The translations under genes were made by a program, and so were the position numbers. A stretch of 7,239 nucleotides of DNA, taken from a virus. Its lineage: Duplodnaviria > Heunggongvirae > Uroviricota > Caudoviricetes. The stretch's first letter is position 1. Each line of letters opens with the position of its first letter. The stretch is from the IMG/VR virus record IMGVR_UViG_2529292835_000020; one strand, 5' to 3'. This document shows, piece after piece, positions 1-7,239 of the stretch. Below the pieces are notes generated by a model. The model worked only from the letters and a program-made list of their open reading frames with translations, was not told the DNA's origin and made no database searches.

Positions 1-296
1 AACACATCTCGATTTTTTGAAGCAATATGGTGATTTTGAAAATGGTATTCCTGTTCACGATACCATTGCCAGAGTTGTATCCTGTATCAGTCCTGCAAAA
101 TTTCACCAGTGCTTTATTAACTGGATGCGTGACTGCCATTCTTCAGATGATAAAGACGTCATTGCAATTGATGGAAAAACGCTCCAGCACTCTTATGACA
201 AGAGTCGCCGCAGGGGAGCGATTCATGTCATTAGTGCGTTCTCAACAATGCACAGTCTGGTCATCGGACAGATCAAGACGGATGAGAAATCTAATG
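1..296 (+). repeat. Direct repeat, identical to 6944-7239 (internal segment of the transposase gene)
   Basis: Base-by-base comparison by eye of window start and window end shows no mismatch. Confidence 0.9.
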
Positions 297-982
297 AGAT
301 TACAGCTATCCCAAAACTTCTTAACATATTGGATATTAAAGGAAAAATCATCACAACTGATGCGATGGGATGCCAGAAAGATATTGCAGAGAAGATACAA
401 AAACAGGGCGGTGATTATTTATTCGCGGTAAAAGGAAACCAGGGGCGGCTTAATAAAGCCTTTGAGGAAAAATTTCCGCTGAAAGAATTAAATAATCCAG
501 AGCATGACAGTTACGCAATGAGTGAAAAGAGTCACGGCAGAGAAGAAATCCGTCTTCATATTGTTTGCGATGTCCCTGATGAACTTATTGATTTCACGTT
601 TGAATGGAAAGGGCTGAAGAAATTATGCGTGGCAGTCTCCTTTCGGTCAATAATAGCAGAACAAAAGAAAGAGCCCGAAATGACGGTCAGATATTATATC
701 AGTTCTGCTGATTTAACCGCAGAGAAGTTCGCCACAGCAATCCGAAACCACTGGCACGTGGAGAATAAGCTGCACTGGCGTCTGGACGTGGTAATGAATG
801 AAGACGACTGCAGAATAAGAAGAGGAAATGCAGCGGAATTATTTTCAGGGATACGGCACATTGCTATTAATATTTTGACGAATGATAAGGTATTCAAGGC
901 AGGGTTAAGACGTAAGATGCGAAAAGCAGCCATGGACAGGAACTATCTGGCGTCAGTCCTTGCGGGGAGCGGGCTTTCGTAA
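1..982 (+). CDS. ISAs1-family (H-repeat-associated, DDE-type) transposase, 5'-truncated by the window edge; codons start at nt 2, stop TAA 980-982
   Basis: Open frame from the window edge to 982; provided ORF 17..982 translation (…[29 protein letters not shown]…[20 protein letters not shown]…) matches, from memory, the E. coli H-repeat proteins (YhhI/YdcC/YbfD paralogs); I cannot say which paralog. Its first 296 nt are identical to 6944-7239, the continuation of the complete 5' end seen at 6789. Confidence 0.9.
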
Positions 983-1011
983 TCTTGCCCTGGGTAGGAG
1001 GCCCTCCAGGG

Positions 1012-1464
1012 ATGTTAGTCGGTGCGGCAGTTGGAGCGGTGGTTATTGGTGGTGGTATAGTAATATACAACAATCGCGAGGCTGTTGGGGATGCGATTGA
1101 GAAAAGTATGGAGATGCGGGGTGAAGCCGAATTATTAAATGCACAAAGTCAAATGGAATTCTGGCGAGATCCCTATGGTGCTTTTTCCAGCGTGTTTGGA
1201 AATGATGATTCATCAAAAGAGAATCCAAATGTCGGGAAGGATTTGACGGATGAAGAGAAGAACTGTTTGGGCAGTGGCAGTACAGGAGGTTCGGGAGGGT
1301 GGGAGCCAGATGAGGATGGCGAAATAAGAAATACCTACAGGTCTATTAAGGATGCTCCTCAGTATCCCAGAGGGTTTAGGAATGTCCAAAATGGCACTAC
1401 AAGGAATGTTGTAAAGGATCAGCAGTTATTGAAACAATTACGTAAAGTAGATTCAGGAAAATAG
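1012..1464 (+). CDS. Hypothetical protein with N-terminal glycine-zipper-like hydrophobic segment; possible orphan toxin-like remnant; ends at amber TAG 1462-1464 but the frame stays open to TAA 1582-1584
   Basis: ATG 1012 preceded by AGGAGG 995-1000 (the ORF track's 985 start is a TTG). N-terminus MLVGAAVGAVVIGGGIVIY is hydrophobic and Gly-rich, followed by a hydrophilic body. Body is AT-rich unlike the rhs core. Function not recognised. Confidence 0.4.
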   Translation: MLVGAAVGAVVIGGGIVIYNNREAVGDAIEKSMEMRGEAELLNAQSQMEFWRDPYGAFSSVFGNDDSSKENPNVGKDLTDEEKNCLGSGSTGGSGGWEPDEDGEIRNTYRSIKDAPQYPRGFRNVQNGTTRNVVKDQQLLKQLRKVDSGK

Positions 1465-1583
1465 AGTAAAGTTTATAAAGATGGATTTGATGCGTCAGGT
1501 CGAAAAGTGTCCATTCACTATTTTGAAAGTCAGAGTGGTCGAGTATTTAATGTAAAAGTAAAACCTTATTGGAGTAATTTATA

Positions 1584-1924
1584 ATGAGAATTGATTATAG
1601 TATTAGCAATGAACACGCAGAGAAATTTATCAGTCTTTTAGTGTTGGGTGTTTTATATTCTATTGAAAAAAAGCAATATCTATAGATGAGGCAGAAGGTT
1701 TTATATTTAAGCCATCTACGTCAAAAACATTGAATGCTGCATCGCACTCTAAAAACTTAATTGACATTATAGATTCTGGTTGTGAGCTTGAAGATATATC
1801 TAGCATCATTCCTGAAAATTTATCAGGTAATATTGATAAATTAATTAACCAGACGCTGGATTTTATTCGAGGTGCTCCTGATTTTGGCGGTGCAGTCGAT
1901 AAGGAAATTATTTTAGTCAAATAA
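1584..1924 (+). pseudogene. Small gene (candidate immunity-like partner) split by a -1 frame change at an A7 tract: 1584..1685 (33 codons) continues in the -1 frame 1667..1924
   Basis: ATG 1584 overlaps the upstream TAA (TAATG) with GGAG at 1571-1574. The frame stops at TAG 1683-1685, but the -1 frame is open from 1667 to TAA 1922-1924 and has no plausible ATG of its own. One extra A in the 1666-1672 run would fuse both parts into a 113-codon ORF. Confidence 0.35.
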
Positions 1925-1958
1925 AAATATATCGTTAATATATGTTGGTGATGTTTTG

Positions 1959-1990
1959 TTGAGGGCTTTTTTATTGTTAGTGGTATAAAT
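1959..1990 (+). promoter_or_regulatory. Candidate sigma70 promoter for rhs: -35 TTGAGG (1959-1964), extended -10 TGgTATAAA (1981-1989)
   Basis: Hexamer matches in the AT-rich intergenic region upstream of the rhs RBS AGGGAG (1993-1998) and ATG 2005. The 19-nt spacer is longer than optimal. Motif-based only. Confidence 0.3.
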
Positions 1991-2156
1991 ATAAGGGAGT
2001 GAGAATGAGCGGAAAACCGGCGGCGCGGCAGGGCGACATGACCCGCAAGGGACTGGATATTGTGCAGGGTTCAGCAGGGGTGCTGATAGGCGCGCCGACG
2101 GGGGTTGCCTGCTCGGTGTGTCCTAAAAAAAGGACAGTCCAAATTATGGCAACCCG

Positions 2157-3407
2157 GTGAACCCGGTGCTGGGTGCAAAGGTGCTGCCGGGCGAGACGGA
2201 CATTGCGCTGCCCGGCCCGCTGCCGTTCATCCTTTCCCGCGCCTACAGCAGTTACCGGACCAGGACGCCCGCGCCGGTAGGGGTGTTCGGTCCCGGCTGG
2301 AAAGCGCCCTTCGATATCCGCTTACAGATACGCGATGAAGGCCTGATACTCAACGACAGCGGCGGCAGGAGCATTCACTTTGAGCCGCTGTTTCCCGGCG
2401 AGGTAAGCTACAGCCGCAGCGAGTCACTCTGGCTGGCGCGGGGCGGAGTAGCGGCGCAGCACAGTTCGCAGCCGCTAAGCGCGCTCTGGCAGGTGCTGCC
2501 GGAAGATGTTCGCCTGAGTCCGCATGTGTACCTGGCGACAAACAGCCTTCAGGGGCCGTGGTGGATACTCAGCTGGCCGGAGCGGGTGCCGGGGGCGGAC
2601 GAGGTGCTGCCGCCGGAGCCGCCCGCATACCGGGTGCTGACGGGCGTGGTGGACGGCTTCGGGCGGACGCTGACTTTCCACCGGGCGGCGGAGGGTGACG
2701 TGGCGGGCGCGGTGACGGGGGTGACGGACGGCGCGGGCCGCTGTTTTCACCTGGTGCTGACCACACAGGCGCAGCGGGCGGAAGCCTTCCGTAAACAGCG
2801 CGCCACGTCTTTATCTTCCCCTGCCGGTCCCCGTTCTGCTTCCTCTTCTTCTGCTTTCCCCGACACGCTGCCCGCCGGTACAGGATACGGTGCCGATAAC
2901 GGTATCCGGCTGGAGGCGGTGTGGCTGACACACGACCCGGCATACCCGGATGAACAGCCGACTGCGCCGCTGGCGCGCTACACGTACACGGCCAGCGGAG
3001 AACTGCGGGCGGTGTATGACCGCAGCGGGACGCAGGTTCGCGGGTTTACTTATGATGCGGAGCACGCCGGGCGGATGGTGGCGCACCATTATGCGGGGAG
3101 GCCGGAGAGCTGCTACCGGTATGATGATACCGGTCGGGTGACGGAGCAGGTCAACCCGGAGGGGCTGGACTACCGCTTTGAGTACGGAGAGAGCCGGGTA
3201 ATCATCACGGACAGCCTGAACCGGCGGGAGGTGCTGTACACGGAAGGCGAGGGTGGCCTGAAGCGGGTGGTGAAGAAGGAGCATGCCGACGGGAGCATCA
3301 CCCGCAGCGAGTATGATGAGGCGGGGAGGCTGAAGGCGCAGACGGATGCGGCGGGGCGGCGGACGGAGTACCGGCTGCATATGGCGTCGGGTGCGGTGAC
3401 GCGGTGA
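2157..3407 (+). CDS. Rhs N-terminal core fragment (a gene caller would report this segment of the rhs pseudogene as a separate CDS)
   Basis: ORF-track frame; translation aligns with the Rhs N-terminal region as I recall it (NPV-GAKVLPGETD-ALPGPLPFILSR-YSSYRT…). Not an independent gene. Confidence 0.5.
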   Translation: MNPVLGAKVLPGETDIALPGPLPFILSRAYSSYRTRTPAPVGVFGPGWKAPFDIRLQIRDEGLILNDSGGRSIHFEPLFPGEVSYSRSESLWLARGGVAAQHSSQPLSALWQVLPEDVRLSPHVYLATNSLQGPWWILSWPERVPGADEVLPPEPPAYRVLTGVVDGFGRTLTFHRAAEGDVAGAVTGVTDGAGRCFHLVLTTQAQRAEAFRKQRATSLSSPAGPRSASSSSAFPDTLPAGTGYGADNGIRLEAVWLTHDPAYPDEQPTAPLARYTYTASGELRAVYDRSGTQVRGFTYDAEHAGRMVAHHYAGRPESCYRYDDTGRVTEQVNPEGLDYRFEYGESRVIITDSLNRREVLYTEGEGGLKRVVKKEHADGSITRSEYDEAGRLKAQTDAAGRRTEYRLHMASGAVTR

Positions 3408-3905
3408 CGGGGCCGGACGGCAGGACGGTACGGTATGGCTATAACAGCCAGCGGCAGGTGACGTCAGTGACGTACCCGGACGGGCTTCGCAGCAGCCGGG
3501 AGTATGATGAGAGGGAAGGCTGACGGCGGAGACCTCGCGCAGCGGTGAGACAACGCGGTACAGCTATGATGACCCGGCGAGTGAGCTGCCGACAGGGATA
3601 CAGGACGCGACGGGCAGTACAAAACAGATGGCATGGAGCCGTTACGGTCAACTGCTGGCCTTCACGGACTGCTCGGGGTACACGACGCGGTATGAGTACG
3701 ACCGGTACGGTCAACAAATCGCCGTTCACCGGGAAGAAGGCATCAGCACTTACAGCAGTTATAACCCGCGTGGCAACTGGTCAGTCAGAGGGATGCGCAG
3801 GGGCGGGAGACCCGTTATGAGTACAGCGCCGCAGGCGACCTGACAGCGACGATATCACCGGACGGTAAACGCAGCACCATCGAATATGATAAACGCGGGC
3901 GTCCG

Positions 3906-4613
3906 GTGAGTGTGACGGAAGGCGGTCTGACGCGCAGCATGGGGTATGACGCTGCCGGGCGCATCACTGTGCTGACCAACGAGAACGGCAGCCAGTCCAC
4001 GTTCCGGTATGACCCGGTCGACAGGCTGACGGAGCAGCGTGGCTTTGATGGCAGGACGCAACGTTACCAGTATGACCTGACCGGAAAACTCACGCAGAGT
4101 GAAGATGAGGGGCTTATCACCCTCTGGCACTACGATGCGTCGGACCGCATCACCCGGCGCACGGTGAACGGCGACCCGGCGGAGCAGTGGCAGTATGATG
4201 AACACGGGTGGCTAACCACCATCAGCCATACCAGTGACGGCCACCGAGTGTCGGTCCACTACGGCTATGACGATAAAGGCCGCCTGACGGGCGAACGGCA
4301 GACGGTGGAGAACCCGGAGACGGGGGAGATGCTGTGGGAGCATGAGACGGGGCATGCGTACAGCGAACAGGGGCTGGCGACCCGTCAGGAGCCGGACGGC
4401 CTGCCGCCGGTGGAGTGGCTGACGTATGGCAGCGGTTATCTTGCGGGGATGAAGCTGGGCGGAACGCCACTGGTCGAGTACACGCGGGACCGGCTGCACC
4501 GTGAGACGGTGCGCAGCTTCGGCGGTGGCAGGCCTGATGAAGCTTGCCACCGCCTGGACATACACCCTCACAGGGCAGCTACAGAGCAGGCACCTGAACC
4601 TCCCGCAGCTTGA
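3906..4613 (+). CDS. Rhs central core fragment with YD repeats (segment of the rhs pseudogene)
   Basis: ORF-track frame; YD-repeat content ([18 protein letters not shown]); homologous frame actually opens at about 3765. Confidence 0.45.
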
Positions 4614-6240
4614 CCGGGACTACGACTGGAACGACAACGGACAGCTAATCCGCATCAGCGGCCCGCAGGAGAGCCGGGAGTACCGTTACAGTGACACGGG
4701 AAGGCTGACGGGCGTCCACACCACGGCGGCGAACCTGGATATCGATATCCCGTATGCGACGAACCCGGCAGGAAACCGGCTGCCGGACCCGGAACTGCAC
4801 CCGGACAGCACCCTCACGGCGTGGCCGGATAACCGCATCGCGGAAGATGCGCACTATGTCTACCGCTACGATGAATACGGCAGGCTGGCGGAGAAGACGG
4901 ACCGCATCCCGGAAGGGGTGATACGGATGCACGACGAGCGGACCCACCACTACCACTACGACAGCCAGCACCGTCTGGTGTTCTACACGCGGATACAGCA
5001 CGGTGAGCCGCAGGTGGAGAGCCGCTACCTCTATGACCCGCTGGGCCGCCGGACGGGAAAACGGGTGTGGCGGCGGGAGCGTGACCTGACGGGGTGGATG
5101 TCGCTGTCGCGTAAACCGGAGGAGACATGGTACGGGTGGGACGGTGACAGGCTGACGACGATACAGACCGGCACCACGCGTATCCAGACGGTGTACCAGC
5201 CGGGGAGCTTCACGCCGCTCCTGAGAATCGAAACAGAGAATGGCGAACAGGCGAAGGCGCGGCACCGTAGCCTGGCGGAGGTGTTGCAGGAGGACACGGG
5301 TGTGACGCTACCGGCGGAGCTGGCGGTGATGCTGGGGAGGCTGGAGCGGGAACTGCGCGCGGGAGCGGTGAGTGCGGAGAGTGAGGCATGGCTTGCGCAG
5401 TGCGGGCTGACGGCGGAACAGATGGCCGCGCAGATGGAGGCGGAATACATCCCGGAGAGGAAACTTCATCTTTACCACTGTGACCACCGTGGACTGCCGC
5501 AGGCGCTCATCACCCCGGAAGGCGAAACGGCGTGGTGCGGGGAGTATGACGAGTGGGGGAACCAGCTTAATGAGGAGAACCCGCATCACCTGTACCAGCC
5601 GTACCGTTTGCCGGGGCAGCAGTATGATGAGGAGTCGGGACTGTATTACAACCGTCACCGGTACTACGATCCGTTGCAGGGGCGGTATATCACCCAGGAT
5701 CCGATAGGGTTGAAGGGGGGAATAAATCTATACACGTATCCACTGGCACCAATACGTTACACTGATCCACTGGGGTTAGAACGAGTTATAAGTGTATATG
5801 GGCCTCCCGCTCCAGACCGGGCAGGTGCTGAAACTCCTCTTGTTCTTACTGATATGACTGGAGGAGTGACTATTTATTATGATCCTGAAACAGGTGATTC
5901 AATGACTTTTGATAGTAGCAATAGAATTGATCGTCGTTCTCAACGTGGTGCTGGTGATCCATATACAGGTGAAGTCGTTGGTTGTGAGACAAATGAATCA
6001 GGAATATCGGCAGCATATGGCACAACGAAGATCTATACTACAGATACTAGAGCAAGATGGCTACATGGTGGGGGATCATCGTTGCGCGATCCTTATGCTC
6101 CTCGACAAGGCTGGAAACCAACTATGGGATGTACCCGTGCACAGAATGAAGATGTAGATGAGTTGTGTAAGAAAGTGACAAGTTGGATGTATTCGCATCC
6201 TGGAGAGAGAATTAGATATGAACGTTTTAAGACACGTTAA
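4501..6240 (+). CDS. Rhs C-terminal core plus toxin tip (longest intact segment of the rhs pseudogene)
   Basis: 579-codon open frame containing YD repeats, DPLGL (5764-5778) and the 153-codon C-terminal domain; stop TAA 6238-6240. Confidence 0.55.
5779..6237 (+). other. Rhs C-terminal toxin domain, putative L,D-transpeptidase (YkuD) fold
   Basis: Begins immediately after DPLGL. Contains WLHGGG (His codon 6064-6066) and, about 22 residues later, [17 protein letters not shown] (Cys codon 6130-6132), resembling the YkuD His … (S/T)xGC(I/V)Rx-N-D…L active-site signature. Composition switches to AT-rich. Confidence 0.5.
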
Positions 6241-6610
6241 TGCGATTAACATGGGAGTGTGCATTCTAATTTTGGTTATTGGATGTGCAAATGCTAAAGT
6301 TCTTAAACGATGTATATTACCCGCTCCTGATGGTGGCGTAGAAAAACTATCAAAACCCAACTTACATGGAGTAATTAAAAAAGTTGATTTGAACACAAAT
6401 GAAGCGGAAATTAAAATAAAAGAGGGGGGGGCAGTGAGTTTTATTTTTAATGAGGAAACATTGTATTTTACTGTTTTTGGTGGGGATTTTATTATGGATG
6501 ATTTAAAAAAAGTAAAAAATACGGAAGCATGGGTATGGTATAAAAATTGCGATAGTAAAAATAAAAATGTGGCAGTTGAACTTCTTCAAATCTACGAATT
6601 GCATCAATGA
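6218..6610 (+). CDS. Predicted lipoprotein or exported small protein; candidate cognate immunity protein of the Rhs C-terminal toxin
   Basis: ATG 6218 overlaps the last codons of rhs (stop 6238-6240). N-terminus [23 protein letters not shown] has a positive n-region, hydrophobic core and lipobox-like VIGC (AXA-like ANA follows). AT-rich; stop TGA 6608-6610. Position matches Rhs immunity genes. Confidence 0.65.
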
Positions 6611-6650
6611 AAAATATAGTTAAATAGAGGAGGTTATTAATAGCAGGAAA

Positions 6651-6674
6651 AGCATCACGTGATGCTGATTTTTT
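6651..6674 (+). terminator. Candidate intrinsic terminator: palindrome AGCATCACGTGATGCT followed by T6
   Basis: Perfect 16-nt palindrome at 6651-6666 (about 6-bp stem, 4-nt loop) followed by TTTTTT at 6669-6674, 41 nt after the 6610 stop. Stem is short and only moderately GC-rich. Confidence 0.4.
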
Positions 6675-6788
6675 GCACTAAATAATTCGCATTTTATGTT
6701 TAAAAATTGAGATATTCCTTATTACCTAAAGCTGTTTTTTATTGCTTATACATGATCAAATACTCCTTACATAATTAAGGAGAACAAA

Positions 6789-7239
6789 ATGGAACTTAAA
6801 AAATTGATGGAACATATTTCTATTATCCCCGATTACAGACAAGCCTGGAAAGGGGAGCATAAATTATCGGATATTCTACTGTTAACTATTTGTGCCGTTA
6901 TTTCTGGTGCAGAGGGTTGGGAAGATATAGAGGATTTTGGGGAAACACATCTCGATTTTTTGAAGCAATATGGTGATTTTGAAAATGGTATTCCTGTTCA
7001 CGATACCATTGCCAGAGTTGTATCCTGTATCAGTCCTGCAAAATTTCACCAGTGCTTTATTAACTGGATGCGTGACTGCCATTCTTCAGATGATAAAGAC
7101 GTCATTGCAATTGATGGAAAAACGCTCCAGCACTCTTATGACAAGAGTCGCCGCAGGGGAGCGATTCATGTCATTAGTGCGTTCTCAACAATGCACAGTC
7201 TGGTCATCGGACAGATCAAGACGGATGAGAAATCTAATG
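6789..7239 (+). CDS. ISAs1-family (H-repeat-associated) transposase, complete 5' end, 3'-truncated by window edge
   Basis: ATG 6789 preceded by AAGGAG (6777-6782). Translation [67 protein letters not shown]… runs to the window end with no stop; 6944-7239 is identical to 1-296. Confidence 0.9.
6944..7239 (+). repeat. Direct repeat, identical to 1-296
   Basis: Same comparison as for 1-296. Confidence 0.9.

Follow-up and report, generated by a model that had tools for sequence, protein, structure and literature searches.

Identical ends of an Escherichia coli Rhs contig mark a self-overlap within a single ISAs1 element

Introduction

The stretch of DNA analysed here (the window, 7,239 nucleotides) starts and ends with the same sequence and contains an Rhs toxin gene with its neighbours in between. 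Such an arrangement raises the question of whether two copies of an IS bracket the Rhs element, as the headline of a first-pass annotation had it, or whether one IS has been written out twice. At face value the same-orientation IS sequence at both ends resembles a composite transposon. Unlike in a composite transposon, only one IS copy is demonstrable. Outer ends, target-site duplications, and clear terminal inverted repeats were not found, and the contig does not extend beyond the IS into an outer flank.

Results

The contig overlaps itself within one ISAs1 element

By direct self-comparison, positions 1-296 equal positions 6944-7239 on the same strand with 0 mismatches in 296, exactly as the annotation had reported. 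The period is 6943, and the pair was also recovered as direct repeat D1 in a repeat search of the window. It is impossible that a 296-nt exact match originated by chance. The window is the entire 7239-bp WGS contig AQEA01000005.1 (range 1-7239) of Escherichia coli 2747800 (assembly GCA_000354775.2). Because it represents a whole contig and not a cut-out of a chromosome, the terminal repeat, which touches both ends, is a self-overlap of the contig. Furthermore, because the identity continues up to the first and the last nucleotide, the 296 nt measure how far the contig overlaps itself and do not give the size of a repeat. The respective features are:

1..296, + strand: left copy of the contig self-overlap, at about IS coordinates 275-570, identical to 6944-7239
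1..994, + strand: 3' part of the ISAs1 element, with the transposase stop at 982 (Pfam, NCBIfam, joined ORF)
6670..7239, + strand: ISAs1/ISEc1 (H-repeat), 5' part of the same single element (blast boundaries against many IS copies)
6944..7239, + strand: right copy of the overlap, repeating the DNA of 1-296 (whole-contig status and exact identity)

Homology with other IS copies begins at about 6644-6670 and runs to 990-994 (about 1.27-1.29 kb by blast), and no convincing terminal inverted repeats were found at these boundaries. At 6789 the transposase has its start codon, and a gene with DDE_Tnp_1_assoc is called at 6789-7239. Joining 6789-6943 to 1-982 restores the interrupted gene as an intact transposase ORF of 1137 nt (378 aa), and 1137 nt is also the size of annotated ISAs1 genes in complete genomes. 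The repeated segment had been placed inside a transposase gene, which is correct, and this gene belongs to the ISAs1-type DDE transposases according to NCBIfam NF033564 (367 bits, cut-off 70), Pfam DDE_Tnp_1 (E=1.5e-30), and DDE_Tnp_1_assoc.

In related complete genomes both contig ends map to one IS copy, which in genome L007 is located at 10453-11720, and the joined ends are contiguous there. In L007, L013, L001, L008, L012, and L005 one IS copy is located after the immunity gene, and positions 1-296 match it with 100% identity. Two separate IS copies, as a composite transposon has them, are thus not what the ends represent, because the ends are the same allele of an element present as one copy in the related genomes. 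The proposal that two same-orientation IS copies bracket the Rhs element is not supported for this sequence, also because the joined ends rebuild exactly one intact 1137-nt transposase gene. The contig describes a 6943-bp circular path with one ISAs1 element and not two.

Gene content of the loop

Starting downstream of the IS, the path contains the following genes:

1012..1464, + strand: 150-aa "orphan" ORF, always found after the IS in such modules, annotated as hypothetical protein (WP_000960005.1 and similar)
1730..1924, + strand: small DUF3969 protein, encoded ahead of Rhs (Pfam PF13108, E=1.1e-07; annotated as DUF3969 family in related genomes)
2005..6240, + strand: disrupted Rhs gene with PAAR-like N-terminus, DUF6531, RHS repeats, core, and C-terminal toxin (Pfam, ORFs)
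5779..6240, + strand: L,D-transpeptidase-like C-terminal toxin domain of the Rhs protein (weak Pfam YkuD, RefSeq name of the equivalent fragment)
6218..6610, + strand: immunity gene cognate to the toxin, with a 23-nt overlap with the Rhs stop and a product of 130 aa that has a signal of the lipoprotein type (..LVIGC..)
6611..6669, + strand: spacer between immunity gene and IS, of the yafV/T6SS-locus type (0 mismatches to L007 and L013)

This corresponds to the architecture of T6SS-associated Rhs polymorphic toxins, comprising PAAR (weak), DUF6531, RHS_repeat, RHS, a DPxGL core end (DPIGL/DPLGL at 5698-5778), and an overlapping immunity gene, and related Rhs loci are found in VgrG/Hcp context. 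The toxin domain matches Pfam YkuD only weakly (E=6.6e-4; its 20.7 bits do not reach the cut-off of 23.4), and the RefSeq label of the equivalent toxin fragment is "L,D-transpeptidase family protein". The exact immunity protein is encoded downstream of the VgrG-linked Rhs1 gene in L006-L013. From the stop of the immunity gene to the transposase start there are 179 nt. The orphan ORF matched no Pfam or NCBIfam family, and NCBIfam did not name the DUF3969 protein or the toxin-immunity pair either.

Every ORF belongs to the IS, the Rhs gene, the immunity gene, or a small hypothetical protein, and neither a replication initiator nor a mobilisation gene was found among them by Pfam and NCBIfam. We therefore rejected a plasmid origin. 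The contig closes on itself and similar records of 6.8-7.3 kb have been deposited as plasmids, as would be expected of an autonomous small plasmid. However, these look-alike records are typed non-mobilizable in PLSDB and in thousands of genomes the entire sequence is part of the chromosome, so that the chance of a true plasmid is negligible. A phage origin was rejected as well, because the matches in the phage collection searched are only fragments in short unannotated records.

Two chromosomal loci with similar gene order

In L007 the order is VgrG-linked Rhs1 (with the L,D-transpeptidase-like toxin and its immunity gene), a single IS, orphan ORF, DUF3969 gene, and Rhs2. We infer that the chromosome of strain 2747800 resembles that of L007, which was used as proxy genome. 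The window from 5251 to 6943 and on from 1 to 3150, in total 4843 nt across the join, aligns gap-free to L007 9034-13876 with 12 substitutions. Nine substitutions within the IS are clustered at 520-781 and could result from natural gene conversion. None of 5426 complete E. coli genomes contains the arrangement of the window at more than 97.8% identity.

The other locus of interest is pptA (RhsE), which has the order IS, orphan ORF, DUF3969 gene, Rhs with the same toxin, immunity gene, IS, and pptA in L002 and L003. If strain 2747800 had two real ISAs1 copies in direct orientation around the orphan-DUF3969-Rhs-immunity unit, as found there, a contig beginning within one copy and stopping further along within the other would also have identical ends. 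The architecture exists in these two complete genomes, and the window is collinear with it over 1-6690 at 97.1% identity. Units of this kind, which many E. coli strains have at pptA (e.g. NZ_CP035884.1 and NZ_CP013662.1), also share with the window the one-strand order of ISAs1, orphan ORF, DUF3969 gene, Rhs with the same toxin, an immunity gene of the same family, and ISAs1. In contrast to the window, they have two distinguishable IS copies, an intact Rhs ORF of 4242 nt, and pptA as known outer flank. The period of the pptA-type locus is about 7201 and not 6943, and in the two loci mapped there are 225-243 nt of extra DNA between immunity gene and IS, which the window does not have. Whether the immunity gene can be directly joined to the IS at pptA was tested with a synthetic immunity-IS-pptA query of 2225 nt. 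In every pptA-locus genome listed the corresponding span was at least 2401 nt, and each of the listed genomes needed at least two pieces and at least 176 extra nucleotides. The IS pairs bracketing the unit differ at 4-5 of 296 positions (two loci read), and neighbouring ISAs1 copies in complete genomes differ at 2-7 of 296 positions in all compared pairs but one. Finally, both ends of the window have the allele of the IS following the immunity gene at the yafV/T6SS locus, and the Rhs gene, intact in the pptA version, is in the window a Rhs2/Rhs1 hybrid with frameshifts. Two real IS copies at a pptA-type locus are therefore very unlikely to be the source of the contig.

The Rhs gene is a hybrid of two paralogs

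Painting of informative sites against the two Rhs paralogs of L007 divided the Rhs gene as follows:

2005..4020, + strand: part following the downstream paralog (Rhs2 of L007), by informative-site painting
4040..4212, + strand: switch zone with Rhs2-like and Rhs1-like states in alternation, where the loop is closed, by informative-site painting
4214..6240, + strand: part following the upstream VgrG-linked paralog (Rhs1 of L007), by paralog comparison

The bins from 2005 to about 3100 are all Rhs2-like and those from 3300 to 4020 almost entirely so. Rather than being mixed evenly from both paralogs, the Rhs2-like part agrees with Rhs2 at about 97% of the informative sites. The gene accordingly combines the 5' end of the downstream copy with the 3' end of the upstream copy, as the join of a tandem duplication does, and the collapse of a repeat yields the same pattern.

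Compared to the intact 4242-nt gene of L002, the Rhs gene of the window lacks a single nucleotide at four sites and contains a segment that is out of frame, and its frame is broken at 2124, 3400, 3512, 3771, and 4527-4555. The A8-to-A7 frameshift at 2124 is common to many genomes, leading to a lineage-restricted 51-aa ORF whose protein matches are on the chromosomes of other strains, while the remaining breaks are specific to the window. These window-specific indels are all found within the zone common to the paralogs. The 1-nt deletions at 3400, 3512, and 3771 all (3/3) fall on columns at which Rhs1 and Rhs2 of L007 differ, although such columns comprise only 11-18% of the region (p roughly 0.001-0.006). 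Positions 4500-4581 are an out-of-frame chimera of two allelic forms. For 4400-4700 the best full-length match in the 5426 complete genomes has 94% identity, and a window-specific 51-nt pattern from 4500-4581 had no exact match in viral contigs, species-representative genomes, and metagenome contigs. Judged from the sequence, indels at paralog-variable columns in a hybrid core would favour a collapse over a real join. The deletions could also be the natural decay of an existing pseudogene.

Discussion

How the loop may have been closed

The explanation that we regard as best supported, with a probability of roughly 0.7, is that the contig is a circular path through a collapsed repeat, with one IS copy and closed in the Rhs core. 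The chromosomal stretch of the strain would consist of VgrG, Rhs1 with the L,D-transpeptidase-like toxin, the immunity gene, the IS, the orphan ORF, the DUF3969 gene, and Rhs2. The Rhs1 and Rhs2 cores of about 1.8 kb are similar direct repeats and would have been merged. The assembler could then have followed a path from the 5' end of Rhs2 through the shared core to the 3' end and toxin of Rhs1, and via the immunity gene, the IS, the orphan ORF, and the DUF3969 gene back to the 5' end of Rhs2. Subsequently, it would have written out this circle with overlapping ends. The most likely reason why the ends overlap inside a single IS is thus a fusion of two similar Rhs toxin genes in the assembly, and it is the merging of the directly repeated cores that would have closed the loop. 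We infer that the assembler, and not the cells, brought about this merging. A circularised or collapsed repeat had already been considered in the first-pass annotation as one of three options. It is the option that holds best, except that the collapsed repeat closing the loop would be the Rhs core and not the IS.

The tandemly duplicated unit, another of these options, is possible in the sense that it is compatible with the same contig. The sequenced culture could have contained the 6.9-kb toxin-immunity-IS-orphan unit as a real tandem duplication, or as an excised circle that does not replicate, if the direct repeats formed by the Rhs1 and Rhs2 cores had undergone unequal crossing-over dependent on RecA. 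In this case the contig would show a true join of the Rhs2 5' end to the 3' end and toxin of Rhs1. The polarity of the hybrid is as expected of such a join, and the same self-overlapping contig with the same mixed consensus would result. That Rhs cores can recombine in this way is documented. For E. coli K-12, duplications mediated by rhs were described by Lin, Capage and Hill 1984, as cited in PMC3967940, and recombination between main and orphan rhs as well as duplication of the locus are known from Salmonella (PMC3967940). Like the window, these cases involve directly repeated Rhs cores as homology and chimeric Rhs products. They were shown by experiment, and the junction detected in Salmonella joins the main 5' end to an orphan toxin, which is the polarity of a deletion, whereas the hybrid of the window has the reciprocal polarity and may exist only in the assembly. 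In addition, loop-shaped contigs of like make-up are present in three other E. coli assemblies, where they have been deposited as plasmids. However, the absence of the duplicated arrangement from all 5426 complete genomes speaks against a real duplication. Duplications that are not under selection are also lost easily and seldom encountered in a culture, with loss rates of up to 10% per generation quoted in PMC3967940. Moreover, a single clean crossover should yield an in-frame hybrid of two parts and not alternating states and indels at paralog-variable columns. A real duplication or circle in the culture is therefore unlikely.

The best-studied analogue also points away from a real duplication. 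The pseudo-plasmid pL65-4 (NZ_CP034740.1, 6767 bp) resembles the window in gene content and order, in having one IS, and in a loop closed in the Rhs core. It is a contig redundant with the chromosome, which already has the intact locus, and covers Rhs1, immunity gene, IS, orphan ORF, and Rhs2 with Rhs and IS frames broken by indels. Aligned to the Rhs1-to-Rhs2 interval of its own chromosome, it shows 97.3% identity and 74 gap openings. It differs from the window in having another Rhs1 toxin/immunity pair (with an immunity protein of 85 aa) and in being much noisier. By analogy, pL65-4 may be regarded as an independent precedent for a loop contig with one IS.

Implications for Rhs loci

AQEA01000005.1 is most likely an ordinary by-product of assembly, and its identical ends do not provide evidence for two IS copies around the Rhs element. 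In general, identical ends on a short contig should be taken as a signal of self-overlap and not of two repeat copies. Loop-shaped contigs arise easily from Rhs loci, which combine paralogous cores of kilobase length with ISAs1 elements in multiple copies, and some of these contigs have been deposited as plasmids. It is quite improbable that such a loop is instead a real and recurrent product of Rhs-core recombination at VgrG-linked loci, in which toxin, immunity gene, IS, and orphan module would be amplified in tandem or excised as a circle, and that the loops of pL65-4, pF873-2, and pN18EC0432-5 represent a common state of a subpopulation. If the loop were real, it would provide a direct view of the amplification or excision of a toxin-immunity unit mediated by Rhs cores. 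Because the original "rearrangement hot spot" work and the Salmonella studies have already established the principle of this process, a real loop would extend and not overturn the known biology. If it were recurrent, it would be a subpopulation state raising the dosage of the immunity gene or shuffling the toxin tips.

Identical ends and gene content

The window starts and ends with the same 296 nt (1-296 and 6944-7239; same strand, period 6943), a stretch from inside a transposase gene of the ISAs1 family (Pfam DDE_Tnp_1, E=1.5e-30; NCBIfam NF033564, 367 bits, cut-off 70). Self-comparison and profile matches thus confirm what the first-pass annotation had described. Because the identity extends to both sequence ends, the 296 nt give the length of an overlap instead of measuring a repeat. 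The window-specific 416-aa ORF (2157-3407), looked up by exact match, returned one record, contig AQEA01000005.1 of GCA_000354775.2 (Escherichia coli 2747800; proteins EMW81496.1 and EMW81497.1). With its 7239 bp the contig coincides with the window (1-7239), which is therefore an entire small draft contig that overlaps its own end. A self-overlapping contig is the usual written form of a circular assembly path. Joining 6789-6943 to 1-982 restores a single unbroken transposase ORF of 1137 nt and 378 aa, exactly the length of the annotated ISAs1 genes in complete genomes. The flagged repeat reflects the way in which the record was written out and is not a demonstrated biological structure. The window contains:

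~6644/6670-7239 and 1-994: one ISAs1/H-repeat element, divided between the ends
1012-1464: 150-aa ORF without family match in Pfam or NCBIfam ("orphan")
1730-1924: DUF3969
2005-6240: Rhs gene with PAAR-like N-terminus, DUF6531, RHS repeats, core, and C-terminal toxin
5698-5778: end of the Rhs core (DPIGL/DPLGL)
6218-6610: immunity gene (130 aa), overlapping the Rhs stop

Chromosomal context and number of IS copies

Two chromosomal contexts have to be distinguished. At the pptA (RhsE) locus some strains have the order ISAs1, orphan, DUF3969, Rhs with the window's toxin, immunity gene, ISAs1, and pptA (complete-genome loci L002 and L003), and here the unit is truly bracketed by IS elements. The yafV/T6SS locus (read in L006, L007, L010, L011, L013, L021, and L025) starts with Hcp, VgrG, an upstream paralog Rhs1 with the window's toxin, the exact immunity protein of the window, and, after 179 nt, a single ISAs1; it continues with orphan, DUF3969, a downstream paralog Rhs2 with another toxin, ydcD, two IS, and yafV. 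Judged by its sequence, the window is of the yafV/T6SS type and not of the pptA type. From the immunity gene into the IS it matches L007 and L013 with 0 mismatches, while all listed pptA-type genomes contain extra DNA at this position (L002 and L003: 225-243 nt). A synthetic query joining immunity gene, IS, and pptA (2225 nt) spanned at least 2401 in the records of the genomes listed and always matched in at least two pieces.

Taking L007 as stand-in for the chromosome of strain 2747800, the window from 5251 to 6943 and on from 1 to 3150 (4843 nt across the join) corresponds to L007 9034-13876 without gap and with 12 substitutions. When the window is tiled on L007, one IS (10453-11720) receives both ends. 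In the complete-genome loci compared, neighbouring ISAs1 copies show 2-7 differences over the 296 positions, with 4-5 in the bracketing pairs at pptA; the only identical pair consists of non-adjacent copies in NCTC8623, the record behind both L001 and L013. The headline of the first-pass annotation, two IS copies around the Rhs element, is very unlikely: such an architecture exists at the pptA locus, but junction, period, IS alleles, and the intact Rhs gene there are all unlike the window.

Nine of the 12 substitutions fall within 260 nt of the IS interior (520-781), and in 150-nt tiles these stretches are closer to other ISAs1 copies than to the local one. The cluster represents a patch of gene conversion or else a consensus from several IS copies.

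Loop closure within the Rhs core

Aligned to both L007 paralogs, the window's Rhs gene is Rhs2-like from 2005 to ~4020 and Rhs1-like from ~4212 to the stop, with both states alternating at 4040-4212. This switch means that the loop closes within the shared Rhs core and not in the IS. The earlier suggestion of a circularised or collapsed repeat is the best supported one, with the Rhs core, and not the IS, as the probable collapsed repeat.

NZ_CP035884.1 has an intact gene of 4242 nt; against it, the window's Rhs frame is broken at 2124, 3400, 3512, 3771, and 4527-4555. All window-specific indels are inside the Rhs zone common to both paralogs, and the remainder of the contig has zero indels against L007. 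The 1-nt deletions at 3400, 3512, and 3771 are all at columns where Rhs1 and Rhs2 of L007 differ, which make up 11-18% of the region (p ~0.001-0.006). The segment 4500-4581 is a mixture of two allelic forms, out of frame with each, and its top full-length match in 5426 complete genomes is 94%. We therefore regard a circular assembly path with a single IS, in which the collapsed Rhs cores of the two paralogs close the loop, as the probable origin of the contig (about 0.7).

Many other draft contigs end at 4500-4581, marking it as a point of paralog divergence and assembly breakage. The E. coli P0304816.7 draft (P0032 and P0037), which to judge from the strain name belongs to the sequencing project of 2747800, has frameshifted Rhs fragments ending in this hypervariable core segment.

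The frameshift at 2124 (A8 to A7, A-run 2117-2124) is natural because it is common to many genomes; the identical 51-aa ORF occurs in 1110 listed blocks of the collection. The shift cuts the downstream Rhs gene into a PAAR-like N-terminus of 51 aa and the remainder, and it is present at both pptA and yafV loci (L020-L029), with A8 and an intact gene kept in other strains. It could be a lineage-inherited pseudogenisation or a slippage-prone homopolymer switch.

Look-alike records and a possible duplication

The window's arrangement as such is absent from the 5426 complete genomes; the top match, 97.8% in two pieces, is NCTC8623 with a permuted single-IS order. PLSDB contains three records of like composition (6.8-7.3 kb, one IS each), pF873-2, pL65-4, and pN18EC0432-5, all typed as non-mobilizable. 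These E. coli "plasmids", deposited as NZ_OY757120.1, NZ_CP034740.1 (pL65-4), and CP048292.1, have the loop IS-orphan-DUF3969-Rhs-toxin-immunity, no mobilisation typing or replication gene is listed in their records, and they are probably not plasmids. The loop of pL65-4 is the same as the window's. The L65 chromosome carries a complete yafV/T6SS-type locus, and pL65-4 aligns to its T6SS-linked Rhs1-to-Rhs2 interval with 97.3% identity and 74 gap openings, wrapping through the cores; in its annotation both IS and Rhs carry frameshifts. Here the contig is clearly redundant and of low quality.

A real tandem duplication or an excised circle, generated by unequal crossing-over between Rhs cores, would result in an identical-looking contig. 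Such crossing-over is already known for Rhs cores (PMC3967940, which in turn cites Lin, Capage and Hill 1984). However, none of the complete genomes has such an arrangement, duplications are unstable without selection, the junction is messy instead of a clean in-frame hybrid, and the contig of the pL65-4 precedent is clearly redundant. This origin seems rather unlikely.

Toxin, immunity, and possible cassette movement

The toxin (153 aa) is L,D-transpeptidase-like. Within the toxin-immunity region (5779-6610), the toxin contains a stretch similar to the His...Gly-Cys motif at the active site of L,D-transpeptidases and Tlde1-type T6SS effectors; its match to Pfam YkuD is below threshold, and RefSeq gives part of it the name "L,D-transpeptidase family protein". 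A lipoprotein-type signal (LVIGC) is present in the immunity protein, in keeping with a toxin acting in the periplasm.

In NCTC8623 (L001 4854-9415) an ISAs1 directly adjoins a 5'-truncated Rhs gene with the window's toxin and immunity pair, and upstream there is a further full Rhs, again accompanied by an immunity gene and an IS. Displaced toxin-immunity-IS modules are stacked here into an array. At the pptA locus (L002 12924-13242, L003 12664-12948) a short copy of the IS left end (corresponding to window 6644/6670-6690) comes after the cassette; the 225-243 nt of other DNA and the full IS follow in this order.

The surrounding biology is already known, namely an Rhs array that is linked to VgrG and contains an ISAs1 element and further Rhs modules downstream. 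The short IS-end copy at pptA suggests that the toxin-immunity cassette may have moved between the two Rhs loci carrying an IS edge, for which the Rhs core and the IS would have provided the flanking homologies.
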